Notes under the pieces: generated by a model | Told to the model about the DNA's origin: nothing | The model's database searches: none | The model's input: the letters and a program-made list of their open reading frames with translations, nothing else | Shown here: piece by piece, positions 916 through 17,864 of the stretch | Position numbering within the stretch: position 1 is the first letter of the stretch | Layout of the letters: every line of letters begins with the position of its first letter | Assembly: GCA_031409335.1 (NCBI GenBank) | Contig: JANNWY010000171.1 | Span: forward strand, 1-17,864 | Direction: 5' to 3' | DNA from: Chthoniobacteraceae bacterium | Lineage (GTDB): Bacteria > Verrucomicrobiota > Verrucomicrobiia > Chthoniobacterales > Chthoniobacteraceae | Length of the DNA stretch: 17,864 nucleotides | Translations under genes and position numbers: made by a program

Positions 916-2193
916 ATGAAAACCTTTCCATCCATCTTTCTCATCTGCCTCACGAGCCGCCTGCTGGCGGCAGAAGGAGGCACCCTCACGCTGCCCGAGG
1001 CGCTCGCTCTGGCGACTTCCAAAAGCCCGGAACTCGCGGCTTTTTCCTACGACCAGCGAGCCGCGGATGCGCGGCTGCTGCAAGCGGGTCTAAAGCCCAA
1101 TCCGGTCGTTTCGCTGGAGGGAGAGGACTTCCTCGGCGGCGGTGACTACAGCGGCTTGCAGCAAAGTCAGACGACGCTTTCGCTCGGGCAATTGCTCGAA
1201 CTCGGCGGCAAACGTGGCGCGCGGATCGAGGTGGCGCGGGCCGGGCAGATTGCTGTGCAATTCGACTATGAGGCAAAGCGTCGGGACGTGTTGCGCCGGA
1301 CGACGGAGGCATTCGTCGAGGTGCTCGGAGCGCAGCGGCGCGTCGATCTCGCGGAGGAAACTGCGAAGCTCGCGGGCGAGTTCATCCCGCTGATGCAGAA
1401 GCGGGCCGCGGCGGGGGTGGCCTCGACTGTGGAGACGGCGCGCGGCGATGTGGCGCTGGCCACGGCGCAGATCGGCGTGGAGCAGGCGCGGCGCGATCTT
1501 GCCGCTGCACGTCGGACGCTCGCGACGCAATGGGGCGCGAAGGAGGCGAGCTTTGCGGAAGTGTCTGGCGACTTGGGCCGGCGTCCGCCGCTGCCGAGTT
1601 TTGCAACGCTTCAATCGAAGCTCGCGCGGCATCCGCTCGTCGCCCGCTGGGATGCGGAGCGGGATGTGCGGACGGCCATCGTGGCGCGGGAAAAAGCGAA
1701 CGCGAAACCGGACATCACGTTCTCCGGCGGAGCGCGCTGGCTGGCGAACGACGGGCATGGCGAACCGGCGCTGGTTGCGGGTGTTTCAATTCCGTGGCCG
1801 CTCGCGAATCGCAACCAGGGGAACATCGCCGAAGCCCAGGCGCTCGCAGGGAAGACTGAGGCGGAGAAGCGTGCAACTCAGGCGGCGCTCACCGCCCAAC
1901 TCGGCGAAGCATGGGAGGCGCTCGCCAAGGCGCTCAAACAACTCGAAATCCTCGACGGCAAACTCCTCCCTGCGGCGAACAGCGCCATCGAGGCGGCCAG
2001 CACCGCGTATGAAGCCGGGCGCTTGAGCCAGCTCGAAATCCTCGATGCTCGCCGGACGCTTACCGACGCGCGCACCCAGGCGCTCCAAGCCCGCATCGCC
2101 GCGCACAAGGCCGCGGCCACTCTCGATGCGCTCACCGCCTCCTCACCCGACTTCACGGACAAAAACGTCCAGCCCCCCGCGCGCAAACGCTAA
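916..2193 (+). CDS. czcC: TolC-family outer membrane factor, CzcC-like (425 aa)
   Basis: Signal peptide; OEP-type motifs (LTLPEALALA..SPEL, QAGLKPNP, QLLELGGKRGAR, SIPWPLANRNQGNI, YEAGRLSQLEILDARR); first gene of a C-B-A triplet. Confidence 0.9.
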   Translation: MKTFPSIFLICLTSRLLAAEGGTLTLPEALALATSKSPELAAFSYDQRAADARLLQAGLKPNPVVSLEGEDFLGGGDYSGLQQSQTTLSLGQLLELGGKRGARIEVARAGQIAVQFDYEAKRRDVLRRTTEAFVEVLGAQRRVDLAEETAKLAGEFIPLMQKRAAAGVASTVETARGDVALATAQIGVEQARRDLAAARRTLATQWGAKEASFAEVSGDLGRRPPLPSFATLQSKLARHPLVARWDAERDVRTAIVAREKANAKPDITFSGGARWLANDGHGEPALVAGVSIPWPLANRNQGNIAEAQALAGKTEAEKRATQAALTAQLGEAWEALAKALKQLEILDGKLLPAANSAIEAASTAYEAGRLSQLEILDARRTLTDARTQALQARIAAHKAAATLDALTASSPDFTDKNVQPPARKR

Positions 2194-2217: not shown

Positions 2218-6706
<4,489 letters not shown>

Positions 6707-6709
6707 TCC

Positions 6710-7825
6710 ATGCCAGACTTCGTTCAAGCACTGCAAAGCGGCAGCACGAGCCTCTGGCTTTTCATCCCCACCGCCATCCTGCTCGGAGCCTTGCACGGGC
6801 TGGAGCCGGGGCACTCGAAGACGATGATGGCTGCGTTCATTATTGCCATCCGGGGCAGCATCGCGCAGGCCGTCCTGCTCGGCGTTTCCGCGGCGATTTC
6901 GCACTCCTTCATCATCGCGGTGCTCGCGTTCGCGGCGCTGCATTTAGGCAGTCAGTGGAACGCGGAGAACATCGAGCCTTATCTGCAAATCGGTTCCGCT
7001 GTCTTCATCCTCGCGCTCGCCGTCTGGATGTTCCTGCGCACGCGGAGGGACTTGCGCGACGCGCATCATCATCACGACCACGGACACCATCACCAAGGCC
7101 ATGACCACGAGCACGACGAAACATTCCTGCTCGATACGGACCACGGCAGAATCGAACTGAGCGTCTTCGAGGATGGCGTGCCGCCGGTCTTCCGCCTGCG
7201 CGCGCCGCTGGGTGAGACGCTGCCAGACGCGGCCAGCGTAGCCGTCGAAACCGTGCGCCCCGACGGCGCGCGGCAGACGTTCGCCTTTACCGCCAAAGGC
7301 GACGTTCTCGAATCACGCGGTTCGATTCCCGAGCCACACGAGTTCGATGTGGTGATGACCGTGACTGCGGGCGGCGAGCGCCACACCGCGCGCGCAGAAT
7401 TCCGCGAAGATGCCCACGCCCACGGCGAGGGCACGGACTTCCAGGATGCGCACGAACTCGAACACGCCGAGGACATCCGCCAGCGCTTCGCCGGGCGGGC
7501 CGTCACCACACCGCAGATCGTGCTCTTCGGCATCACCGGCGGCCTCATGCCGTGCCCTGCCGCATTCAGCGTCCTGCTCATCTGTTTGCAGCTCAAACGC
7601 ATCGCCCTTGGCTTCACGATGGTCGCGTCGTTCAGCTTTGGCCTCGCGCTCACGATGGTCACGACTGGCGTGCTCGCTGCCTGGAGCGTGCAGCACGCCT
7701 CGCGGAAGTTCCGCGGCTTCGGCGAAGCGATGCGGCGCGCGCCTTACATCTCATGCGCAGTGCTCGTGATCATCGCGCTCTACATGGCCGTCCACGGCTG
7801 GCGCGGCCTCGCCGCCCATACCTGA
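6710..7825 (+). CDS. rcnA: RcnA-family Ni/Co efflux transporter with His-rich loop and inserted soluble domain (371 aa)
   Basis: LGALHGLEPGHSKTMMAAFIIAIRG; His loop at 7064-7114; QDAHELEHAEDIRQRF; FGITGGLMPCPAA; RRAPYIS. Confidence 0.9.
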   Translation: MPDFVQALQSGSTSLWLFIPTAILLGALHGLEPGHSKTMMAAFIIAIRGSIAQAVLLGVSAAISHSFIIAVLAFAALHLGSQWNAENIEPYLQIGSAVFILALAVWMFLRTRRDLRDAHHHHDHGHHHQGHDHEHDETFLLDTDHGRIELSVFEDGVPPVFRLRAPLGETLPDAASVAVETVRPDGARQTFAFTAKGDVLESRGSIPEPHEFDVVMTVTAGGERHTARAEFREDAHAHGEGTDFQDAHELEHAEDIRQRFAGRAVTTPQIVLFGITGGLMPCPAAFSVLLICLQLKRIALGFTMVASFSFGLALTMVTTGVLAAWSVQHASRKFRGFGEAMRRAPYISCAVLVIIALYMAVHGWRGLAAHT

Positions 7826-9172
7826 TTGATTGTGAACGCTTCCACCACCGATTCACCGCTCTGGCGGCACGGCGTTTTTCAAAAGCTGTTCTGGGCGCAT
7901 GTCATCAGTCTCGTCGGCAGCGGGCTGAGTTCCGTCGCGCTCGCGCTGCTGGCGCATCAGTTGGTCGGGGCTTCCGCGTCGGCAGTGCTCGGCATCACGC
8001 TCGCGATCCGCATCGTCGTCATCGTCTTCTTCTCGCCGTGGGCGGGGCAAATCGCGGAACGCTGCGGCGCGCGGGTGCTGATGATCGGGAGCGACCTCCT
8101 GCGCGCCGGTATCGTCGTCGGCTTTTTCTTCGCGGAGAGCGTGTGGCAGATCTACGTCCTCGCCTTTTTTCTCAATCTCGGCGCGGCGATCTTCACGCCC
8201 GTCTATAAGGCGGTGATCCCCGGCGTGGTCTCGGAGAAGCAGTATCCGCAAGCACTGGCGCTCGGGGCCATCGCCTACGACACGGCGAACATCCTCGGCC
8301 CATCGCTCGCCGGTTTATTCATCGCGACGTTTGGTTTTCGCGGCAATTTCCTCGCCGATGCCGTCACGTTTCTGGTTAGCGCCGCGCTGCTCTTCGCCGT
8401 GCGCCGCCCGGATGTGGACGGTCTTCGCGCGAACAAGAAACCGACCGCGCTCGGGCACGGCCTCACCGCCATGTTTCAGCGCGCTCCGTTGCGCGAGACG
8501 TTGTTCCTCGCGTTGCAGGTCAGCGTCTCGGGCGCGTTTGTGCTCGTGGCGACGGTGGACTTCGTGAAAGGCCAGCTCGGCTTGCCCGACAGCGCCTACG
8601 CTTGGGCGATGGCCGCCTATGGCATCGGCTCGGTCTGCGGCGCTGCCCTCTACGCCCGCGTCTCGCCGCGCACGCGCGATCACTTCGTCGCGGCTTGCGC
8701 GCCGGCCATGCTGCTCGCCTTTGCCTTGGCCGGCGGACTCCAGCAATACATCCCGCTGCTCGTCGGCTGGGCCTTCGCCGGCGCGGCACAAAGCATTCTT
8801 GGAATCCGCGCCAATGAACTGCTCGCCGCGAACAGCGTCGGCGACGAACGCGCTCATATTTACGCCGCGCACTTTTCCCTCAGCCACGCCGGTTGGGGCC
8901 TCACCTACCCGCTGGCGGGACTGCTCACCACCGCCATCGGCTTCGCTCCCACCGCAGGCATCTTCGCCGGCCTGCTCGTGCTCGTGACGGCCCCGATGTG
9001 GTTTCAACGCGGCCGTCTCGCCGCGACCCACGCCCACGCCCCGGATCGCCAGCACGCCCACGCCCACAGCGCCCTCGAACCGCCGGGCGACTATCACACG
9101 CACGAGCACCGCCACGGCGACATCGTGCATTCCCATCCCCACCGCCACGACGTTCCGCATTCGCACGAATAA
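7826..9172 (+). CDS. nreB: MFS exporter, NreB/NrsD-like nickel resistance protein with His-rich C-terminal tail
   Basis: LFWAHVISLVGSGLSSVALALLA..VLGITLAIR; YAAHFSLSHAGWGLTYPLAG; tail HAHAPDRQHAHAH..HTHEHRHGDIVHSHPHRHDVPHSHE. Start is TTG 7826 or GTG 7832, abutting the rcnA stop. Confidence 0.8.
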   Translation: MIVNASTTDSPLWRHGVFQKLFWAHVISLVGSGLSSVALALLAHQLVGASASAVLGITLAIRIVVIVFFSPWAGQIAERCGARVLMIGSDLLRAGIVVGFFFAESVWQIYVLAFFLNLGAAIFTPVYKAVIPGVVSEKQYPQALALGAIAYDTANILGPSLAGLFIATFGFRGNFLADAVTFLVSAALLFAVRRPDVDGLRANKKPTALGHGLTAMFQRAPLRETLFLALQVSVSGAFVLVATVDFVKGQLGLPDSAYAWAMAAYGIGSVCGAALYARVSPRTRDHFVAACAPAMLLAFALAGGLQQYIPLLVGWAFAGAAQSILGIRANELLAANSVGDERAHIYAAHFSLSHAGWGLTYPLAGLLTTAIGFAPTAGIFAGLLVLVTAPMWFQRGRLAATHAHAPDRQHAHAHSALEPPGDYHTHEHRHGDIVHSHPHRHDVPHSHE

Positions 9173-9231: not shown

Positions 9232-9672
9232 TTGAAACCGCGTCCTAAATCCCATATCGTCTCCATCGTGCTGTGCGTGCTCGCACTGTTCGTGGCGCAG
9301 ACGTTTGGCAGCAAGGTCGCCTACTACTGCCTGTGCGGAGGCAAGCCGGTGCCGACGCTGACTGCGTATTGCTATGGACCGCATGGAGAAGAATGTGCGG
9401 AAGAGGAAGCGAAGGCCGGCGATGCGCCCTGCGAAGACAACGAGGGTGGGGACCGCAAGGATCATCAGGTAGTGTCGCAGGAAGTGCCGATGCGGGCGAT
9501 GGACGCGAAGGCGCAGGTGTTCGCGCCGCAGGTGTTGCTGGCGGTGTTGCGCGTGGTGGATTTTGTTTATGCCGATCGGGAAGTGAAGGCTCCGACCGGT
9601 TATCTCACGAGGTTTGGGGAGTCGCCGCCGTTTGGAGTCACGGTGGCCCGCACGATCGTTCTGCGGATCTGA
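9232..9672 (+). CDS. Small exported Cys-rich protein / putative metal-sensing leader (resembles HYC_CC_PP-type architecture), 146 aa
   Basis: Signal-like N-terminus (IVSIVLCVLALFVAQTFG); YYCLCGG, YCYGPHGEEC, PCED; C-terminal SPP..RTIVLRI. Directly upstream of the second OMF. TTG start is uncertain. Confidence 0.75.
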   Translation: MKPRPKSHIVSIVLCVLALFVAQTFGSKVAYYCLCGGKPVPTLTAYCYGPHGEECAEEEAKAGDAPCEDNEGGDRKDHQVVSQEVPMRAMDAKAQVFAPQVLLAVLRVVDFVYADREVKAPTGYLTRFGESPPFGVTVARTIVLRI

Positions 9673-9676
9673 GTCA

Positions 9677-9789
9677 GGGTTTGGTGACGGCACTCGCCGT
9701 TGCCGTTTGTCGTCCGCGCCGAGCGCACCGTCGCACTCTTGCGACCCTTTAAGCGCCTGCGCGGGTCTGTCCGTCACGTCACCCAACCC
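9677..9789 (+). promoter_or_regulatory. Structured intergenic RNA between leader 2 and OMF2
   Basis: GGGTTTGGTGAC (9677-9688) pairs 11/12 with GTCACCCAACCC (9778-9789). Alternative pairing GTGACGG (9684-9690) with CCGTCAC (9771-9777). Local hairpins ACGGCA/TGCCGT (9687-9706) and GTCGCA-ctct-TGCGAC (9730-9745). Confidence 0.5.
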
Positions 9790-9797
9790 ATGCACTC

Positions 9798-11039
9798 ATG
9801 TCTTTTCCCAAATCCATTTTTCTATTCTTCGCCTGCGCGGCCTCCGCGTGGGCCGGCACCGTGTCCCTCAGTGTCGAGGGCGCAGCCGATTACGCGCTAA
9901 AGCGCAACCCAACCCTTGCTGCCGCCCGGCTCCGCATTGAGGAAGCGCGCGGGCGGCTCCAGCAAAGCGGCCGGCTCAGCAATCCTGAGCTGGAGCTGGG
10001 TTTCACGCGCAACACCGTCGGGCCGGAAGGTTCTGCGGGCATTTCGCTCATGCAGAGGTTTCCGCTCACGGCGCGGCTTCGCTTTGAAAAGGCAGTCTCC
10101 AAAGCCGAACTCGCCGCCGCCGAAGCGGAAGTGCGGGATGCCGAGCGCAAGCTCGCTGCCGAAGTCCGCACCGCTGCGGTGAAGCTGCTTGCCCTTGCTG
10201 GTCAGCGCGATCTTCGCACCAAGCAACTCGGCAACAGCCGCGAGCTTTTTAGCTTTCTCAGCAAACGCGTCGCGGCGGGCGAGGCATCCGCCGTCGATGC
10301 TTCACAGGTGGAACTCGAATCGCGCCAAATCGAAGTCGAGAACCTCATGCTCGCGGCGGATGAAGCGGTGCTGCTCGGCGAACTCCGCCCGCTGCTCGGC
10401 GTCGCGGGCGAGAACCGCGTCGCGATCACCGGTGAATTGCCCGTGCCCAAGGGCATCCCCGCCGCGCGTGAGGTTAGCGGACGGGCGGACATCCTCGCGG
10501 CCGAATCCCGCGCGGAAGCGGCGCGCTGGGTCGTGTTGGAGCAGCGCGCGCGGAAGTGGGAGGATTTCGGCATCGGCGCTTCCTACTCGCGCGACCGCAC
10601 GCTCGATGAACCCGAGCCGGTCGAAACGGAGCACATCTTCGGCATCCGGTTCAGCTTTCCGCTGCCGCTCTGGAACAACAATTCCGGGCGCATCCGCGAA
10701 GCGCAAGCCGCTGCGAAGCGGACGGAACTGGAAGTCGATGCGACTAGGCTCGGCGCGAACGCGGAAGTCTTCGCCGCGCTGAGCGCGATGCGCGCCTACG
10801 CCAAGCTCATCGGCGAACTCGACGACCAGGTGCTGCCTGCTGCTACGCGGATCGAAGAGCAGCTTCGCACCAGCTACTCGACCGGCCTCACGCCGCTCAC
10901 CGACGTGCTGCGCGCCCGCACGCGCCGGCTCGAACTCCAACGCCAGCGCCTCGATGCGCTCCGCGAATATCAACTCGCCCGCATCCGGCATTCCGCCGCG
11001 ACGAGCCAATCCAACTTAACTTCCAAGACTTACAAATAA
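9798..11039 (+). CDS. Second TolC-family outer membrane factor (413 aa)
   Basis: Signal peptide (ASAWA); ALKRNPTLAAAR..GRLSNPELE; FSFPLPLWNNNSGRI; YSTGLTPLTDVLRAR. Stop overlaps the next start (TAATG). Confidence 0.88.
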   Translation: MSFPKSIFLFFACAASAWAGTVSLSVEGAADYALKRNPTLAAARLRIEEARGRLQQSGRLSNPELELGFTRNTVGPEGSAGISLMQRFPLTARLRFEKAVSKAELAAAEAEVRDAERKLAAEVRTAAVKLLALAGQRDLRTKQLGNSRELFSFLSKRVAAGEASAVDASQVELESRQIEVENLMLAADEAVLLGELRPLLGVAGENRVAITGELPVPKGIPAAREVSGRADILAAESRAEAARWVVLEQRARKWEDFGIGASYSRDRTLDEPEPVETEHIFGIRFSFPLPLWNNNSGRIREAQAAAKRTELEVDATRLGANAEVFAALSAMRAYAKLIGELDDQVLPAATRIEEQLRTSYSTGLTPLTDVLRARTRRLELQRQRLDALREYQLARIRHSAATSQSNLTSKTYK

Positions 11040-12214
11040 TGAAACGCATCCTTCCCATTCTGGCCCTCTGCGCCGCCGCCAGCCTCGGCTTTGCCCAGGA
11101 AAAAAAGGCGGACAACAAACGCATGGCCAATACGGTCGTGCTCGACGAAACCGGGGTGAAAAATCTCCGCATCGAAACGGTGGAGGTCGATGAAACGGAC
11201 TTCGAGGAAATCATCTTCTCGCTCGGGCGCATTGAGGCGATTCCCAGCAAGACGGCGGCGGTGAGCAGCCGCGTGCCGGGACGCATCATGGAGCTGAAAG
11301 CGAACCCCGGCGATCAAGTGACTGCGGGGCAGGACGTGGCCCGCCTCGAAAGCCGCCAAGCGGGCGATCCACCGCCGAGCATCCTGCTGAAAGCACCCAT
11401 CGCGGGCCTCGTCACGAAAGTCGATGCGCGGCTCGGCGATCCGTTGGAACCGGACAAGGCGCTGCTCGAAATCACCGATCTCAGCGAAGTCTATGCGGTG
11501 GCGCGCGTGCCCGAGCATCAAGCTGGCAGCATGAAGCCGGGCACCGTCGCGCACATCAAAGTGGCCGCGTTACCAGAGGAGAACTTCGACGGCGAACTGC
11601 TGCGCTTTGGCACTTCGGCGGACAAGCAGAGCGGCACCATCGACGCGATTTTTCGCCTGCCGAACAAAGGAGGGCTGCTGCGCGCCGATATGCGCGCGGA
11701 GTTTTCCATCGTGCTTAGCAAACGCTCCGGCGTGGTCAGCGTGCCGCGGGCGGCGCTGCAAGGCGAGGCGTCGAACCGCTTCGTCTATGTGGAGGACTTC
11801 GATTTGAAAAATGCCTTCGTTAAAACGCAGGTGCAGGTCGGGCAGATGAATGATCGCTTCGTGGAAATCACGAGCGGTCTGCTGCCCGGCGACAAGGTGG
11901 TGAAGCAGGGCGCATATTCGCTGGCCTTCGCGGGCGGGGGGAGCGTGTCGCTGAAGGACGCGCTTGATGCGGCGCACGGTCACGAGCACGCGGCGGACGG
12001 CTCCGAATTGAAACCTGAAGACCAGGCCAAGAAAGCGACTGGCGACGATGGCCACGGCCACGGCGAGGGCGCGCACTCCAGCCCGCTGTGGAAGATCGTG
12101 AGCGGCGTTCTCTTTGTGCTGCTGCTCGTTTCCACGCTCACGAAGCGTGGCGGGGCCGCGCCGACGAAAATTGCCGCGAACCAACCCGCATCCAAAGCGG
12201 AGGAGGCACGGTAA
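11039..12214 (+). CDS. Second RND periplasmic adaptor (MFP) with His-rich segment and C-terminal hydrophobic helix (391 aa)
   Basis: Signal peptide MKRILPILALCAAASLGFA; VSSRVPGRI..PGDQVTAGQ; LKAPIAGLV; LRADMRAEF; VPRAAL; VEITSGLLPGDKVV; AAHGHEH..GHGHGEGAH; LWKIVSGVLFVLLLVSTL. Confidence 0.88.
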   Translation: MKRILPILALCAAASLGFAQEKKADNKRMANTVVLDETGVKNLRIETVEVDETDFEEIIFSLGRIEAIPSKTAAVSSRVPGRIMELKANPGDQVTAGQDVARLESRQAGDPPPSILLKAPIAGLVTKVDARLGDPLEPDKALLEITDLSEVYAVARVPEHQAGSMKPGTVAHIKVAALPEENFDGELLRFGTSADKQSGTIDAIFRLPNKGGLLRADMRAEFSIVLSKRSGVVSVPRAALQGEASNRFVYVEDFDLKNAFVKTQVQVGQMNDRFVEITSGLLPGDKVVKQGAYSLAFAGGGSVSLKDALDAAHGHEHAADGSELKPEDQAKKATGDDGHGHGEGAHSSPLWKIVSGVLFVLLLVSTLTKRGGAAPTKIAANQPASKAEEAR

Positions 12215-15200
12215 TGCTCAACAAGATGATTCATTGGTCGCTCGCGAATCGGGCGATCATCATCGGCATCTCGCTGATCCTGATGGTCACGGGCTTGCGG
12301 ACGGCCACGCAGTTGCCCGTCGAGGTGCTGCCGGACTTGACCAAGCCGACCGTCATCATCCTCACCGAAGCGCCGGGCCTCGCGCCGGAGGAGGTGGAAA
12401 CGCGCGTGACGCAGCCCATCGAAAGCGCGCTCATGGGCGTCGCCGGGTTGACGCGGCTGCGGTCGAACTCCGACGTGTCGCTCTCGCTCGTCTATGCCGA
12501 GTTCGGCTGGGACACCGACATCTACAAGGCGCGGATGCTCGTGCAGGAGCGAATGCAGGGCGTGCGCGAACAACTGCCCGAAGGCGTGCAGCCGTTCATG
12601 ACGCCGGTCGCCTCGCTCATGGGCGAAATCCTGCTTGTCGGCGTGCGCTCGACGATCAAGGAAGGCGAGCCCGGTTACATCCCACCGCGCGATGTGCGCG
12701 CCCTGGCGGATTGGACGATCAAGCGCCGTCTGCAAAGCGTCTCCGGCATCGCTGAAATCCTGAACATGGGCGGCGGCGTGAAGCAGATCGAGATTCAGCC
12801 CGACCCGTTTCGGATGCAGGCCAATAGCGTGAGCTTTGAAGAGCTGGAGAAGGCCGCAGGAGACGCGGCGAACACGACCACCGGCGGTTTCATCAACACC
12901 GGCCCAACGGAAATCATGGTGCGGAATCTCGCCATGACGGTGCAGCTCGAAGACATCGCGCGCACCGTCATCAAGAAGATCAACGACCGGCCCATCCTCA
13001 TCTCCGACGTGGCGAAAGTGGTGTGGGGCATCGAGCCAATGCGCGGCGACGCGACGGTGAGCCAGAACCCGGAGAAGTCACCGACTTACGGCGTCATCAT
13101 GTCGATCACCAAAGCGCCGGGTTTCGACACTCGCGCGCTGACCGAGCAAATCAAAGCCGCGCTCGATGAGCTGGGGACGACCTTTCCGAAAGGCGTCGAG
13201 ACGACGCTGCTCTTTCAGCAAAAGGATTTCATCGACCACGCCATCGGCAACCTCGCAGAAGCCATCCGCGACGGCGCGATCATGGTGACCATTGTCATCT
13301 TTTTGTTCCTGCTGAATTTCCGCACGACGTTCATCACGCTCATGGCGATGCCGCTTTCCTTCGGCATCACCATGCTGACCTTCAAGTGGTTCGACATCTC
13401 GGTGAATTCGATGACCCTCGGCGGCCTCGCCGTCGCCATCGGCATGGTCGTGGATGACGCCATCGTTGATGTGGAAAATGTCTTTCGTCGTCTGCGCGAA
13501 AACGCCGCATCGCCGCATCCGCGCCCGAAGCTGCACGTCATCGCCTCAGCCTCCGGCGAAGTGCGGAACTCGATCCTCTACGCGACGATTCTCATCATCC
13601 TCGTCTTCCTGCCGCTGCTCGGTCTGAGCGGCGTCGAGGGCAAGCTCTTCGCCCCCATCGCCATCGCCACGATCATTTCGATGATGGCGTCCTTCGTCGT
13701 TTCGCTGACCGCGATCCCGGTGCTGTGCTCCTTCCTGCTGAATCCCAAACACGGCGGCGAACACAAGGATGGGTTCCTCGTGCGCGGGATGAAATGGCTG
13801 CTCGAAAACACGCTGCTCCGCTTCGGCCTGAGCCAGCCGTATCTGCTCCTCGCCATCGTGCTGATGATCGTGATCGGCGCGTTCTCGCTCTATCCGCAGA
13901 TGAGTAAGGACTTCCTGCCCGCCTTCAAGGAAGAGACGCTGCTCATCGCCGCGACTTCCGCGCCCGGCACTTCGCTGGAGGAAATGAACAAGATTTCCGA
14001 CGTGCTCGAACAACAAATCCTCTCCGTGCCGGACGTGCGCAAAGTCGGGCGTCGGCTCGGTCGCGCGGAACGCGGCGATCATGTCGTGCCGGTTTCGACG
14101 GCGGAGTTCGACGTGGATTTCCGCGAGGCCGAAGGGCATCTCAGCGGCAAGGGACGGACGCGGAAAGAGATCATCGAAGATGTCACGAAACGCGTGCGCT
14201 CGGTGCCCGGCGTTTTTGCCGCAGTCGGCGGGCCGCTCGCGGATCGCATCGGCCACATGCTCTCCGGCGTGTCCGCGCCCGTGGCCCTGAAAATCTTCGG
14301 CCCGGACCTCGATAAGCTGCGCCAACTCGGCATCGAGGTGCAGGCCGTGGCGAAGACCATCCCAGGTTTTCAGGACGCGAAACTCGACCAGCAATCGAGC
14401 ATCCCGCAACTCCGCATCGAGGCCGACCGCGACCGCGCCGCCGCGTATGGCATCGCGCCCGGCCACTTGAACGAACAGCTCTCCGCGCTCATCGGCGGGA
14501 AGGAAGTCGCCGAACTGCGCGAAGGCCAGCGCGCGGTGAATCTCGTCCTGCGGCTCCCTGTCGAGTGGCGCGATTCGCCGGATCGCATTGCGCGGCTCCC
14601 TGTGGAAACCACCACCGGCCAGCACATCCCGCTCTCGCTCGTGGCCGACGTGCGTGAGGCGAAAGGTCCGAACGTCATCTTCCGCGAAAACAGCCAGCGG
14701 CGTTTCACCATCGCGATCAAACCGACGGTGCGCGATGTCGGCGTGCTCGTGCAGCGGCTGCAAAAAGAAGTGAGCGATAAAGTGGCGCTGCCCGAAGGTT
14801 ACTTCATCACTTACGAGGGCGAGTTCCAGGCGCAGAAGGAAGCCACGCAGCGCATTGTCATCTTCTCCGCGCTCGTCCTCGTGGTCATCGCCTTCCTGCT
14901 CTACGGCTATTTCAGGACGCCGTTTTTCGCCGCGCAGGTGCTCCTCGACATCCCGCTCGCGCTCGTCGGCGGGCTGGTCTTCACCTACCTGAAGTTAGGA
15001 AATATCAGCATCGCCACGCTGGTCGGCTTCATCGCCGTGGCCGGTGTCGCCGCGCGGAATTCGATCATGCTCATCTCGCACTTCCTGCATCTCATGGCGG
15101 TGGAAGGTGAAACCTTCACCAAGGAAATGATCATCCGCGGAACGAAGGAGCGGCTCGTGCCCGTGCTGATGACCGCGCTCGCCGCGGGCATCGGCCTCAT

Positions 15201-15384
15201 CCCGCTCGTCCTCGCTGCCGATCAGCCGGGCAAGGAAATCCTGCATCCCGTGGCCGTCGTCATCGTAGGCGGACTCATCACCAGCACGCTCCTCGGCCTC
15301 GGGGTCACGCCCACCGTCTTCTACACGTTCGGACGCAAAGCCGCCGCGACCGCCGTCGAAAACGAAGCCGGAGCCGCGCACTGA
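12214..15384 (+). CDS. Second HME-RND efflux pump (CusA/CzcA superfamily, subgroup distinct from the first), 1056 aa
   Basis: True start is ATG 12214 (TAATG coupling; GGAGGAGG SD at 12199-12206), not 12088. Motifs: PVEVLPDLTKPTV..TEAPGLAPEEVE, TM4 MTLGGLAVAIGMVVDDAIVDVEN, GRAERGDH, ERLVPVLMTAL, GKEILHPVAVVIVGG. Confidence 0.93.
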   Translation: MLNKMIHWSLANRAIIIGISLILMVTGLRTATQLPVEVLPDLTKPTVIILTEAPGLAPEEVETRVTQPIESALMGVAGLTRLRSNSDVSLSLVYAEFGWDTDIYKARMLVQERMQGVREQLPEGVQPFMTPVASLMGEILLVGVRSTIKEGEPGYIPPRDVRALADWTIKRRLQSVSGIAEILNMGGGVKQIEIQPDPFRMQANSVSFEELEKAAGDAANTTTGGFINTGPTEIMVRNLAMTVQLEDIARTVIKKINDRPILISDVAKVVWGIEPMRGDATVSQNPEKSPTYGVIMSITKAPGFDTRALTEQIKAALDELGTTFPKGVETTLLFQQKDFIDHAIGNLAEAIRDGAIMVTIVIFLFLLNFRTTFITLMAMPLSFGITMLTFKWFDISVNSMTLGGLAVAIGMVVDDAIVDVENVFRRLRENAASPHPRPKLHVIASASGEVRNSILYATILIILVFLPLLGLSGVEGKLFAPIAIATIISMMASFVVSLTAIPVLCSFLLNPKHGGEHKDGFLVRGMKWLLENTLLRFGLSQPYLLLAIVLMIVIGAFSLYPQMSKDFLPAFKEETLLIAATSAPGTSLEEMNKISDVLEQQILSVPDVRKVGRRLGRAERGDHVVPVSTAEFDVDFREAEGHLSGKGRTRKEIIEDVTKRVRSVPGVFAAVGGPLADRIGHMLSGVSAPVALKIFGPDLDKLRQLGIEVQAVAKTIPGFQDAKLDQQSSIPQLRIEADRDRAAAYGIAPGHLNEQLSALIGGKEVAELREGQRAVNLVLRLPVEWRDSPDRIARLPVETTTGQHIPLSLVADVREAKGPNVIFRENSQRRFTIAIKPTVRDVGVLVQRLQKEVSDKVALPEGYFITYEGEFQAQKEATQRIVIFSALVLVVIAFLLYGYFRTPFFAAQVLLDIPLALVGGLVFTYLKLGNISIATLVGFIAVAGVAARNSIMLISHFLHLMAVEGETFTKEMIIRGTKERLVPVLMTALAAGIGLIPLVLAADQPGKEILHPVAVVIVGGLITSTLLGLGVTPTVFYTFGRKAAATAVENEAGAAH

Positions 15385-15393
15385 AACCACTCT

Positions 15394-15425
15394 CCGCCGC
15401 GGTGCCGGTTTGGACACCGCAGCGG
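15394..15425 (+). other. Intergenic stem-loop without U-tract
   Basis: CCGC-c-GCGGTG (15394-15404) pairs with CACCGC-a-GCGG (15415-15425). Confidence 0.45.
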
Positions 15426-15476
15426 TCCACCACTTCCAAACCACCAAAAAAGCAAAACCTGAAAAACAAACAGCAC

Positions 15477-15953
15477 ATGAAATCCATCGCACTGAAACTC
15501 CTCACCGCCCTCGCGCTCACCCTCCCCGCTTTCGCCGCCGACAAGCACGAACACGGGAAGAAAGAAGAAGGCCCGAATGGCGGTCGCGTAATCACCGCCG
15601 TCGAACCGCACCTTGAATTCCTCGTGACCAAGGACCGCAAAGTCGAAATCACCGCGCTCACCGAAGCCCTCAAGCCCGGCAAGCTCAGCGGCCAGGTCAT
15701 CGCCGTCACCGCTGGTGATCGCAGCAATCCGACGAAGCTCGAATTCAAGGAAGACGGCGGCAAACTCGTCTCCACGAACGCACTCCCAGCGGGCAATGAC
15801 TTCCCCGTCTCCGTGAGCATCAAAGCGAACGCGAGCGGCAAAGCCGTTTATGAGAAGTTCAACCTGAACCTCGAAAAGTGCCCGACCTGCAAGCATCAGG
15901 AATACGCCTGCGTCTGCGCCCACGCGCACGAGGATGACAAGAAGAAGAAGTAA
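15477..15953 (+). CDS. Secreted putative metal-binding protein (GPNGGR domain plus C-terminal CxxC/CxC/His cluster), 158 aa
   Basis: ATG 15477 after an A/C-rich tract; signal peptide ending AFA; KHEH, GPNGGRVI; C-terminal CPTCKHQEYACVCAHAHE. Confidence 0.85.
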   Translation: MKSIALKLLTALALTLPAFAADKHEHGKKEEGPNGGRVITAVEPHLEFLVTKDRKVEITALTEALKPGKLSGQVIAVTAGDRSNPTKLEFKEDGGKLVSTNALPAGNDFPVSVSIKANASGKAVYEKFNLNLEKCPTCKHQEYACVCAHAHEDDKKKK

Positions 15954-15967
15954 CCGCCGCCACGAAT

Positions 15968-15997
15968 CGGGGAGCGGGCCATCGCGCCCGCTCCCCG
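15968..15997 (+). other. Perfect 12-bp GC stem-loop (possible terminator or mRNA-stabilising hairpin)
   Basis: CGGGGAGCGGGC-catcgc-GCCCGCTCCCCG, 14 nt after the stop; no poly-T tail. Confidence 0.55.
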
Positions 15998-16014
15998 GCT
16001 CTGCGGCACCACCC

Positions 16015-16566
16015 ATGAAACCTTCTTTTTTCCAACTGACCGCATTCACATTCCTTGCAGCCTGCGGGTGCGCGTCCGGTCAAATCGTCACGGGAAACGA
16101 GTTGGTCCGCATCGAAGTGCGGGTCGCCTCCGATCAGGACCGCAAAGACATCAAGAGCAGTTCGGCGGACAGCGTGACGCAGCACAAAACGCTCACCATC
16201 GCGCTCTCCGGGAAACCGAAGTCGCCCGAAACCCGCACCGGCAAATGGACGGCTTACGGGCACTCCGCCAAGGGGCATGACTACCCCGTGCTCGAATCCG
16301 GTGAGTTCAAAGTCGAGTTTTCACCGCAAGGCCGGCAGACGATTGAATCGAAGAAGATCACGACGACCTACACCCCCGAACATTCCGTGGTATCACGCGG
16401 ACGCTCTGGCGGTGGCGGCGGCACTGGACGGAGCACGACCAAGGCGAAGAAGGTGGAGGCGACCGGAACGAGATTCGCGGGATACGGCGTCGTGGTCAAA
16501 GACGGCGGGAAAGTCGTCGGAGAAACCTTCGATCCGGCGGGCCTGAAACAGGAGGCGGCAAAATGA
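16015..16566 (+). CDS. Hypothetical exported protein, possible lipoprotein (183 aa)
   Basis: ATG 16015 after CACCACCC; lipobox-like FLAAC (Cys17); beta-rich pattern with a Gly/Arg/Ser linker. Confidence 0.7.
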   Translation: MKPSFFQLTAFTFLAACGCASGQIVTGNELVRIEVRVASDQDRKDIKSSSADSVTQHKTLTIALSGKPKSPETRTGKWTAYGHSAKGHDYPVLESGEFKVEFSPQGRQTIESKKITTTYTPEHSVVSRGRSGGGGGTGRSTTKAKKVEATGTRFAGYGVVVKDGGKVVGETFDPAGLKQEAAK

Positions 16567-16898
16567 AGGCGCTCAGCATCGCTGTGCTCCTTGGCATCGG
16601 CTTCGTCGCCGATGCGGCGGCGATGCCTCCAACCGGGCGACGACACACCGGGACGATTGAGCACGTCGATTTGCAAACGCACCGCCTCACCTTCCGCGCG
16701 GATCGGGAGGCGACGGCCAAGACTTTCGTTTGGAACAAACGCACGCGCTTTGTTCGCGAGATCAGCTTTGTCGAAGCCTCGGCGCTGGGCAAAGGCGCGC
16801 GCGCCGATGTGACCGTTCACTCACCATTCTTCGGCGAGCCCTTCGTCTCGCGCGTCATCCTTCTGCAACCCGCGCCCACCGCGCGCTCGCGCCAGTAA
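16563..16898 (+). CDS. Hypothetical small secreted protein, possible OB-fold (111 aa)
   Basis: ATGA overlap with the upstream gene; signal peptide; HTGTIEHVDLQTHRLTF..TFVWNKRTRF..LGKGARADVTV pattern. Confidence 0.65.
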   Translation: MKALSIAVLLGIGFVADAAAMPPTGRRHTGTIEHVDLQTHRLTFRADREATAKTFVWNKRTRFVREISFVEASALGKGARADVTVHSPFFGEPFVSRVILLQPAPTARSRQ

Positions 16899-16945
16899 TT
16901 TCATGCGAACCAAACGCATCGACCTGGTGCGAGTGCTCGTCCTGG

Positions 16946-17224
16946 TCAGCGACCGAAGAGCAGCGACAGCACCACGTCGCGACCGCTGCGGTGATCGTGG
17001 CGGCGGCTGTCGTAACGCCGCCCGGAGTCGTGATGACGATGCTCGCGCGACGAGCGATAACGGTCGTCGGAGCGGTGATGATCGCGGTCAGAATGACGGC
17101 GGTCGTAATGCTCGTGACGGTCGCACCGGTCGTCATCATGGCGGTCGCGCGCCTGGGCCTGCGGCGCAAAGGCGGCGAGTGAAAGGAGCGCGGAGGCGGC
17201 GATGGCAATGGGTTTGGTGTGCAT
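16946..17224 (-). CDS. Secreted low-complexity His/Asp/Arg-rich peptide (92 aa)
   Basis: ATG 17224; signal peptide MHTKPIAIAASALLSLAAFAPQAQA; mature part RDRHDDDRCDRHEH.. with 11 His; hydrophobic tail VVLSLLFGR. Confidence 0.6.
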   Translation of the reverse strand: MHTKPIAIAASALLSLAAFAPQAQARDRHDDDRCDRHEHYDRRHSDRDHHRSDDRYRSSREHRHHDSGRRYDSRRHDHRSGRDVVLSLLFGR

Positions 17225-17306
17225 GGTGTTGTGCGTTCTTCGACGCGGCACGCTCCAAAACAATTCACGCGCTTCCTCGCTTGCGCGCGTGGAGGTCACT
17301 TTTTTT

Positions 17307-17864
17307 ATGAGCGGCCACGATCACGACGGTCACAATCACAAGCCGAGCGACGAAGCGAAGAACATCGCGCTGAATTCCGAATCGAAGGGCAATATCGAAA
17401 CGACCCTGCGCGTCGCCGGGATGGATTGCGCGGATGAGGTCGAGGCGCTGGAGCAGGTGTTTCGCCCGCTCAAAGGTGTGCGCGAAGTGCGGGTGAATTT
17501 GATGGGCGGAAAGGTGACGCTTTTCCACGACGAGAGCGTGACGCCGGAGCAACTCATCGGCGCGGTCGCGAGCACCGGCATGAAGGCCGCGCGCGATGGC
17601 GACGATGCCGCGGACGTGGAGGCCGCGAAACGAATGCGGCAGATTTCCGTCGCCGTTTCGGGTGTCTTCACCGGCCTCGGCTTGCTCGCGCAGTGGATAA
17701 AATTTGGCCCGGCGCTCGCGGCGAACATCGCCTTTGGCATCGCGATCGTTGCGGGCGGCTGGTTCATCGCGCCGAAGGCGTGGCGTGCGGTGCGGCGATT
17801 CGCGCTCGATATGAATGTGCTGATGACCGTCGCCGTCGCGGGTGCGATGGCGATTGGCGAATTC
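17307..17864 (+). CDS. Heavy-metal P1B-type ATPase, CadA/ZntA-like, 5' part (runs off the window)
   Basis: Hand translation, open to the window end (186 codons): MSGHDHDGHNHK..LRVAGMDCADEVEAL (HMA domain)..TM helices..LDMNVLMTVAVAGAMAIGEF. GGAGG at 17291-17295. Confidence 0.88.
   Translation, partial: MSGHDHDGHNHKPSDEAKNIALNSESKGNIETTLRVAGMDCADEVEALEQVFRPLKGVREVRVNLMGGKVTLFHDESVTPEQLIGAVASTGMKAARDGDDAADVEAAKRMRQISVAVSGVFTGLGLLAQWIKFGPALAANIAFGIAIVAGGWFIAPKAWRAVRRFALDMNVLMTVAVAGAMAIGEF

Follow-up and report, generated by a model that had tools for sequence, protein, structure and literature searches.

Does an RcnA-type nickel/cobalt exporter encoded behind an efflux pump of the resistance-nodulation-division (RND) type share a domain with the adaptor protein of that pump, and what would such a domain do in both? 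This question is raised by a contig of a Chthoniobacteraceae bacterium (JANNWY010000171.1, assembly GCA_031409335.1), analyzed over a stretch of 17,864 nt that is referred to here as the window. Its + strand carries a metal-export operon consisting, according to the list of open reading frames (ORFs), Pfam and NCBIfam, of czcC-like, czcB-like, czcA-like, rcnA and major facilitator superfamily (MFS) genes; the rcnA start lies 3 nt past the czcA stop. A preliminary description of this DNA had proposed that the histidine (His)-rich loop of RcnA holds a mobile metal-handling domain related to the N-terminal domain of CzcB. Our comparisons revealed that residues 137-231 of RcnA and residues 56-150 of CzcB are homologous.

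A shared domain in RcnA and CzcB

The curated cut-offs of Pfam NicO (PF03824; E 3.2e-32, 112.5 bits against a cut-off of 27.7) and NCBIfam NF007454 (357.2 bits against 195) place the window gene in the NicO/RcnA nickel-cobalt efflux family, with efflux as its predicted activity. The first alignment had paired nucleotides 7151-7351 with 2410-2616, which correspond exactly to RcnA residues 148-214 and CzcB residues 65-133, and its 22 identities were recovered in a global BLOSUM62 alignment that occupied 72 columns with the present gap settings, against 69 before. BLASTP of the whole proteins aligned RcnA 139-224 with CzcB 57-143 (38.1 bits, E 2e-7, 26/91 identities). The Smith-Waterman score was 86, compared with 24.8 +/- 4.2 for shuffled sequences (z 14.6), and none of 2000 shuffles scored as high. 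When 27 RcnA-type homologues were compared with 30 CzcB-type homologues by hhalign, the probability was 97.35% (E 1.6e-11), and with domain columns only it was 97.6% (E 3e-12, 89 columns). The proposed homology, for which profile-profile and fold comparisons had been suggested as checks, was therefore significant by BLASTP, shuffling and hhalign, and both segments were predicted to be all-beta with an identical strand order. That the similarity reflects chance or composition, as the low pairwise identity (26-29%) might suggest, is refuted by these three comparisons and by the common Pfam family of the two segments.

The whole-protein hhalign alignment ran into the preceding membrane helix, and a shared unit of anchor plus domain was considered. 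The preceding transmembrane (TM)/linker segments alone gave only a weak match (probability 47.9%, E 1.9e-4); the homology therefore concerns the domain, not the anchor plus domain. NF007454 (283 positions) matches RcnA in two stretches, the best listed of which joins residues 232-367 to positions 146-281, and its alignment skips residues 138-231. The Pfam NicO match to the DNA is likewise split by the domain, into 6752-7111 and 7421-7804. Because the family models skip this segment, the domain is an insert in the central loop of RcnA, a His-rich loop that lies between two three-helix halves in the AlphaFold2 (AF2) helix layout.

Family membership and related systems

The domain belongs to Pfam family PF25971, CzcB_N (Pfam 38.1; the name is that given in the Atlas). 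Membership was read from precomputed annotations; the Pfam copy used for our scans predates this family. PF25971.1 is annotated on the window RcnA itself, on the cluster representative of the window CzcB (P0123), on 120/120 RcnA-type matches listed (1445 matches at E <= 0.001 among 1647 candidates) and on 120/120 CzcB-type matches listed (405 matches among 436 candidates). In the Pfam/NCBIfam scan with the older copy, the isolated RcnA domain matched no family, and the isolated CzcB domain matched only CIF, at E 0.04. A ZrgA match on whole RcnA (residues 116-188, E 0.0015, 19 bits against a cut-off of 27.4) was rejected as His-tract noise because it was gone when the domain was scanned without the His tract. 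Within its own genome, the domain profile matched the RcnA copy at E 3.9e-42 and the CzcB copy at E 4.4e-34.

Both the domain and its insertion into RcnA are already catalogued, in Pfam as CzcB_N and in exporters of the MrdH and NcrC type, and hence are not new. A 2010 review, citing Haritha et al. 2009 (J Bacteriol 191:5976), calls MrdH of P. putida 'chimeric ... from RcnA and CzcB' and states that it confers Ni/Cd/Zn resistance (PMC3056050). This wording matches the build of the window RcnA, in which the RcnA core is interrupted by a CzcB-like domain as in the MrdH/NcrC type. That MrdH (PP_2968, Pseudomonas putida KT2440) itself carries CzcB_N is suggested by the review wording and by its Pseudomonas homologues, since RcnA-type genes with the domain from this genus are among the loci fetched here, with 16 rows in one clade of the domain tree. 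The mrdH gene lies in a genomic island beside mreA, whereas the window gene is part of a czcCBA-rcnA-MFS operon in a Verrucomicrobiota genome. NcrC is described as a PF03824 membrane protein contributing to nickel resistance (PMC3046157). The NcrC and plasmid 'RcnA' proteins of Enterobacterales carry the domain, at 40-42% identity to that of the window RcnA, but their genes occur in ncr or rcn contexts and not behind a czcCBA pump. E. coli RcnA (YohM) shares with the window protein the NicO/RcnA membrane core and a central His-rich loop; its loop, given as 67 aa with 17 His in PMC11247825, is too short for the domain. The same source gives this loop as predicted to be cytoplasmic, in line with the earlier remark.

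The window rcnA is thus an uncharacterized new example of an MrdH/NcrC-like architecture. As a discovery it carries little weight: the architecture is in Pfam, has been published since 2009 and is common on conjugative plasmids of Enterobacterales. What is added here is a fold assignment, a range of host proteins that includes the N-terminus and TM4-TM5 loop of cation diffusion facilitator (CDF) exporters, LarC and an unnamed permease, the grouping of the adaptor copies in one clade with a probable single origin, the unusual presence of both copies in one operon, and a charge bias that would put the RcnA copy in the cytoplasm as opposed to the periplasmic adaptor copy.

Predicted fold

Full-length RcnA was modelled with AF2 from a 27-sequence alignment, with a mean predicted local distance difference test score (pLDDT) of 74.5 and a predicted template modelling score (pTM) of 0.54. 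Residues 137-231 form nine strands (137-142, 147-153, 160-164, 177-182, 188-191, 193-196, 199-202, 212-220 and 223-231) with block pLDDT of 80-95, while the His tracts are disordered, residues 124-134 and 235-245 having pLDDT below 50. The CzcB domain, modelled from a 118-sequence alignment (pLDDT 92.1, pTM 0.83), has nine strands in the same order (11-15, 18-25, 32-39, 49-57, 62-65, 67-70, 73-79, 86-94 and 97-105 of the model). The models thus show the two copies as the same predicted nine-strand beta-sandwich. Strands 188-191 and 193-196 are only one residue apart, so that the sandwich would have eight effective passes.

Structural matches were obtained with the domain-only CzcB model in Foldseek (E 8.3e-4) and with VIA-align; Foldseek with the whole RcnA model returned nothing at E <= 0.001. 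The best solved match was CrdA for both the RcnA domain (residues 136-233, Z 10.2, root-mean-square deviation 2.7, 96 aligned) and the CzcB domain (Z 10.9, root-mean-square deviation 2.6, 97 aligned). FetP, HftA, Tp34 and P19, all of them periplasmic metal-binding sandwiches, came next with Z 7.8-9.7, mixed with DUF4426, a family of no known function that scores as high (Z 10.7 and 9.0). CopC (5icu) matched with Z 6.7, in keeping with a Greek-key beta-sandwich. Judged from these models, the predicted fold is like that of periplasmic metal-binding sandwiches of the CopC/CrdA/P19 class. CrdA of Helicobacter pylori is a CopC/PcoC-like periplasmic copper chaperone linked to RND export, and its metal site is a Met-rich loop, according to its authors (PMC9182242). 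The window domains are predicted to be of the same fold class but contain no such loop, the RcnA domain having one Met and the CzcB domain two; of the metal sites of CopC/CrdA chaperones, they have neither the Met-rich Cu(I) loop nor CopC's two-His Cu(II) site.

Host proteins, distribution and evolution of the domain

A cluster search with a profile of 12 domains yielded 907 clusters at 50% identity matching CzcB_N at E <= 0.001, including 553 at E <= 1e-10. When 49 long cluster representatives were scanned with Pfam, 17 were CDF exporters, 13 had the NicO architecture and 7 were CzcB-type RND adaptors; LarC, an EutA-like protein, a tetratricopeptide repeat (TPR) protein and a giant immunoglobulin (Ig)-repeat protein with 33 weak stretches were represented once each, and 8 had no family. 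CzcB_N is therefore almost confined to metal-handling proteins. In CDF exporters the domain is either N-terminal or located past profile position ~131, where it separates the TM4-type helix from the TM5-type helix with 'HVxAD'; this second position, in the His-rich TM4-TM5 loop of DmeF/CzcD-type exporters, parallels the position in the RcnA loop, although the CDF membrane fold is unrelated to that of RcnA. His tracts flank the domain in RcnA, in two CDF proteins with the TM4-TM5-loop position, in one with the N-terminal position, and in the LarC, EutA-like and TPR proteins. In the non-adaptor members examined, the domain is thus embedded in His-rich tracts. The LarC nickel-insertion protein (P0318, 560 aa; identity confirmed by NCBIfam) has it in a His-rich region, the EutA-like protein (P0280, 488 aa) at its N-terminus, and the TPR protein (P0366, 393 aa) ahead of the repeats.

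Relatives with the PEPHEF motif, sampled with one genome per species, comprised at least 593 stretches, from which 80 loci were kept for the locus counts. These encode 65 RcnA-type proteins, two CDF N-termini and 13 copies of an unnamed ~330-aa permease with the domain in its central His-rich loop. This permease has the motifs HAAIPTHWLPF ... TFSPCEGFLPVY; it had no Pfam or NCBIfam match, and its nearest clusters in the Atlas are NicO/DsbD_2, with a score of 0.90. The earlier suggestion that the domain is mobile is well supported by its occurrence in RND adaptors, NicO/RcnA loops, CDF N-termini, CDF TM4-TM5 loops, LarC and the unnamed permease.

The cassette of His tract and CzcB_N occurs twice in tandem in two RcnA-type proteins (P0004, 514 aa; P0006, 533 aa), and twice in two CDF-type proteins (P0254, 568 aa; P0255, 605 aa), as judged from two matched stretches in each. 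Of 11 candidates for stand-alone forms, 10 proteins (55-175 aa) matched at E <= 0.001. Most of them look like gene fragments; P0248 (123 aa), with a His tract, the domain and an HQH end, may be a true stand-alone form. The giant Ig-repeat protein (P0253, 4676 aa), which combines a Por secretion tail with 45 Big_7 Ig repeats, matched the profile at a total of 242.8 bits, which hints that CzcB_N may be a distant relative of bacterial Ig-like domains.

In the phylum of the window, the domain was found in 5 of 301 sampled genomes and NicO in 11, of which four have NicO split by the domain. Two domain copies were present only in the window's own genome, both among the five domain-bearing genomes of this sample and among the 80 fetched loci, none of which has a second domain-bearing ORF. 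A CzcB-like adaptor lies in the flank of five loci (L026, L042, L060, L068 and L074), with no domain in any of them. The presence of both copies in one operon is thus unusual. On plasmids, tblastn with the RcnA domain matched 876 records (Enterobacter 311, Klebsiella 227, Ralstonia 112), 611 of them conjugative, and the annotations under the matches read 'Ni(II)/Co(II) efflux transporter permease subunit NcrC' or 'nickel/cobalt efflux protein RcnA'. The adaptor-type domain matched 86 plasmid records.

A quick maximum-likelihood tree with a midpoint root was built from 154 domain rows whose matches spanned >70 profile positions. The rows were drawn from 12/27 RcnA-type and 12/30 CzcB-type alignment proteins, the 80 loci and 48/49 representatives, the Ig-repeat giant being omitted. 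The adaptor copies, which lack His tracts, group in a single clade (SH-aLRT 100) whose branch is long (1.76). In these CzcB-type RND adaptors (PF25971) the domain follows the membrane anchor, as in the window CzcB, and, unlike the RcnA copy, has neither flanking His tracts nor a His hairpin. By contrast with this single group, copies from NicO, CDF, LarC, EutA-like and unnamed permease proteins are interspersed and require 20 label changes, where 8 would be the minimum. The tree thus points to a single origin of the periplasmic, adaptor branch. The two window copies, 26-29% identical, fall in the two deepest groups. Because of this position, they are best regarded, on sequence grounds, as old paralogues joined in one operon and not as the product of a recent exchange between neighbours.

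Location relative to the membrane

The preliminary description had raised the possibility that the two copies work on opposite sides of the membrane, and our data make this the likely arrangement, as inferred from charge bias, the cytoplasmic CDF and LarC cassettes and the position in the adaptor. The CDF N-terminus and TM4-TM5 loop (from solved CDF structures) and LarC are cytoplasmic. In the AF2 model, RcnA has helices at 15-48 (broken), 51-80 and 85-109 in the first half and at 267-295 (broken), 298-328 and 337-364 in the second. A six-helix model with the N-terminus outside places 13 lysines and arginines (K+R) inside and 3 outside; those inside are R48, four past helix 3, three ahead of helix 4 and five in loop 329-343. 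The RcnA copy is therefore likely cytoplasmic, and RcnA loops are also predicted to be cytoplasmic in PMC11247825. In CzcB, the domain is flanked by the N-terminal anchor and the adaptor core and is predicted to be periplasmic because this core must reach the periplasmic part of the pump. Apparently, the domain can thus function both in the cytoplasm and in the periplasm.

If the RcnA loop were instead periplasmic in this subfamily, its domain would hand metal exported by RcnA to CzcCBA beside the CzcB copy. The location of rcnA, 3 nt past czcA in one operon, would suit such a transfer, as would the weak hhalign extension into the preceding membrane helix. In its favor, 19/65 RcnA-type loci have a CzcA-like gene within the fetched flank; against it, 46/65 show none nearby, many of the flanks being short. 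The K+R count of 13 to 3, the weak TM-only hhalign control, the presence of the same cassette in LarC and cytoplasmic CDF parts, and the grouping of RcnA-type domains with CDF/LarC copies rather than with the adaptor clade all speak for a cytoplasmic loop and make a periplasmic one very improbable.

Conserved residues and proposed function

Residue conservation was counted in 118 diverse domains and is given in RcnA numbering. The most conserved motif is E-P-H (E208 114/118, P209 118/118, H210 114/117), accompanied by F212 (116/117). Conserved positions elsewhere are E154 (112/118), P158 (114/118), P159 (116/118), R162 (110/118), R183 (116/118), G186 (111/118), F191 (113/118), L200 (107/118) and E233 (96/107). 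Both window copies have the whole core E..PP..R ... R..G ... L ... EPH.F. Among the elements first noted as shared, E..PP..R, L and EPH.F belong to this core, but the 'GD' preceding L shows only moderate conservation, with G in 60/118 and the following position occupied by G in 52/118 and D in 32/118.

According to the predicted strand order, one end of the sandwich would bring together the chain ends, both His tracts, E154, P158-P159, R162, R183, G186, E208-P209-H210 and E233. The opposite end would hold the TGHG loop and an HxxHxH hairpin, a putative second His cluster in most non-adaptor members (His in 65/111 for the TGHG loop and in 71/114, 71/112 and 75/99 for the hairpin columns). This second cluster is degenerate in the window RcnA (H145, E223, H225) and missing from CzcB and the whole adaptor clade. 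In a minority of the 27 RcnA-type homologues, including that of the window, GGERH or a similar His-poor form replaces HGGHxH at residues 220-225, so one subclade has lost most of the second His cluster.

With a probability of roughly 0.55, we favor the reading that CzcB_N in RcnA is a metal-collecting or sensing accessory module beside the transport entrance. The cassette of His tract, domain and His tract would act locally, capturing or sensing metal ions for export. If the window copies bind metal through the fold, the E/E/H/E end would be the candidate site; in RcnA the flanking tracts could serve instead. CzcB_N likely helps catch metal ions.

Several points weigh against a metal-binding role. 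Similarity of fold is no proof of similar function, and that the conserved residues gather at one end was deduced from strand order alone. No CopC/P19-type family occurred among the 25 Pfam families listed, of 35, for the 118 domains at E <= 1, and a profile search of Protein Data Bank (PDB) sequences gave only His-rich noise at E >= 0.11; the relation to CopC-type proteins is therefore described as 'same fold' and not as 'member of CopC'. In the literature searched, we found no paper on the structure or metal binding of CzcB_N, and no metal-binding experiment on it. The main doubt comes from the near-invariant R162 and R183, which appear to lie beside carboxylates and a histidine at the conserved end; arginines in such a setting are at least as compatible with a salt-bridge network or docking face as with a site for cations. 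Both the His tracts and the His hairpin are gone from the CzcB clade, so a role that the two contexts share can do without them. Finally, because the pTM of full-length RcnA is 0.54, its model gives no information on how the domain might dock onto the membrane part.

These points lead to the main competing explanation, a clearly less probable one, in which the domain is a structural module without metal binding, i.e., a spacer, docking face or oligomerization piece, and all metal chemistry is left to the transport site and the disordered His tracts. At the conserved E/R/E-P-H/E end one would then expect a network of salt bridges or a surface that contacts the transporter body. The two arginines among conserved acidic residues fit this explanation, and the sole fully invariant residue is a proline (P209), which suggests a fixed turn; the adaptor clade, moreover, retains the conserved end without His tracts, and neither the PDB profile search nor the Pfam families listed linked the sequence to metal-binding families. 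However, such strong conservation would be unexpected for a plain spacer, metal-binding sandwiches dominate the best structural matches, and most non-adaptor members have the extra His cluster within the fold.

It is rather unlikely, in our estimate, that the domain binds metal purely as a sensor or gate and not as a collector, its occupancy altering the contact with the membrane part and switching transport on. For CDF exporters, such switching by cytoplasmic domains and His loops has been proposed. In these proteins the domain occupies exactly the site of their regulatory His-rich TM4-TM5 loop, or the N-terminus, and in the RcnA model flexible tracts tether it on both sides. The present data do not separate sensing from collecting, and no gate that the periplasmic adaptor copy could control is obvious.

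An equally doubtful extension of the collecting role treats CzcB_N as a compartment-independent, built-in metallochaperone with a carboxylate/histidine site (E154, E208, H210 and E233), of which one copy would attend each step of a two-step relay in this operon. RcnA, moving metal from the cytoplasm to the periplasm, would be supplied by the cytoplasmic copy, and CzcCBA, moving it from the periplasm to the outside, by the periplasmic one; RcnA and the CzcCBA pump would then share metal selectivity. As described above, only the window's genome was found to have both copies.

A well-conserved domain of ~95 residues thus recurs in four or more classes of metal exporters as well as in LarC, an enzyme that inserts nickel. 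Its occurrence in the His-rich loops of the unrelated RcnA and CDF families provides a probe for the role of these loops, an old question for both.

Gene neighbourhood

The features of the window are listed in Table 1 together with the loci of the unnamed permease. The window CzcB matches HlyD_D23 and HlyD_3 and has ACR_tran and OEP neighbours, as is typical of an RND adaptor. It scored 296.9 bits over residues 134-422 against NCBIfam IhpB, under the 450-bit cut-off, and PF25973, PF25971, PF25975 and PF25954 are precomputed on its close homologues. From the known build of RND adaptors, the hydrophobic stretch near its N-terminus is probably the membrane anchor.

Table 1. Features of the window and positions of the unnamed permease in other genomes.
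Feature	Position	Strand	Basis or remark
czcC-like outer membrane factor gene, first in operon	916..2193	+	Pfam OEP E 2.3e-44
czcB-like RND periplasmic adaptor gene, 423 aa	2218..3489	+	Pfam HlyD_D23 E 6.2e-23
Probable CzcB N-terminal membrane anchor, ~residues 5-23	2230..2286	+	hydrophobic stretch in translation
CzcB_N domain of CzcB, residues 56-150, predicted periplasmic	2383..2667	+	AF2 model, profile match, CrdA structural match
czcA-like RND pump gene	3503..6706	+	Pfam ACR_tran 1094 bits
rcnA / NicO-family Ni/Co exporter gene, 371 aa	6710..7825	+	Pfam NicO, NCBIfam NF007454
His-rich tract 1 of RcnA, residues 118-137, 11 His in 20	7061..7120	+	residue count
CzcB_N domain in RcnA central loop, residues 137-231, predicted cytoplasmic	7118..7402	+	AF2, profile match, PF25971.1
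His/acid-rich tract 2 of RcnA, residues 234-252, 4 His in 19	7409..7465	+	residue count
MFS transporter gene, start abuts rcnA stop	7826..9172	+	Pfam MFS_1 E 2.5e-31
Second outer membrane factor / adaptor / RND set	9798-15384		Pfam
Unnamed permease	L033:5587-6624		Bosea vaviloviae
Unnamed permease, 12 more loci	L032, L034, L037, L039, L043, L045, L051, L054, L058, L060, L068, L077

The ORFs at 9232-9795, which separate the MFS gene from the second pump, had no Pfam match, nor had four consecutive + strand ORFs (183, 210, 111 and 135 aa) at 15402-17310. No CDF gene is present in the window. The adaptor of the second set (11039-12214) is without the CzcB_N domain, because the profile search gives only two matches in the genome. 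A protein with a heavy-metal-associated (HMA) domain begins at 17202-17864 (E 9.8e-9) and is cut by the window end. Overall, the window looks like a metal-resistance island.

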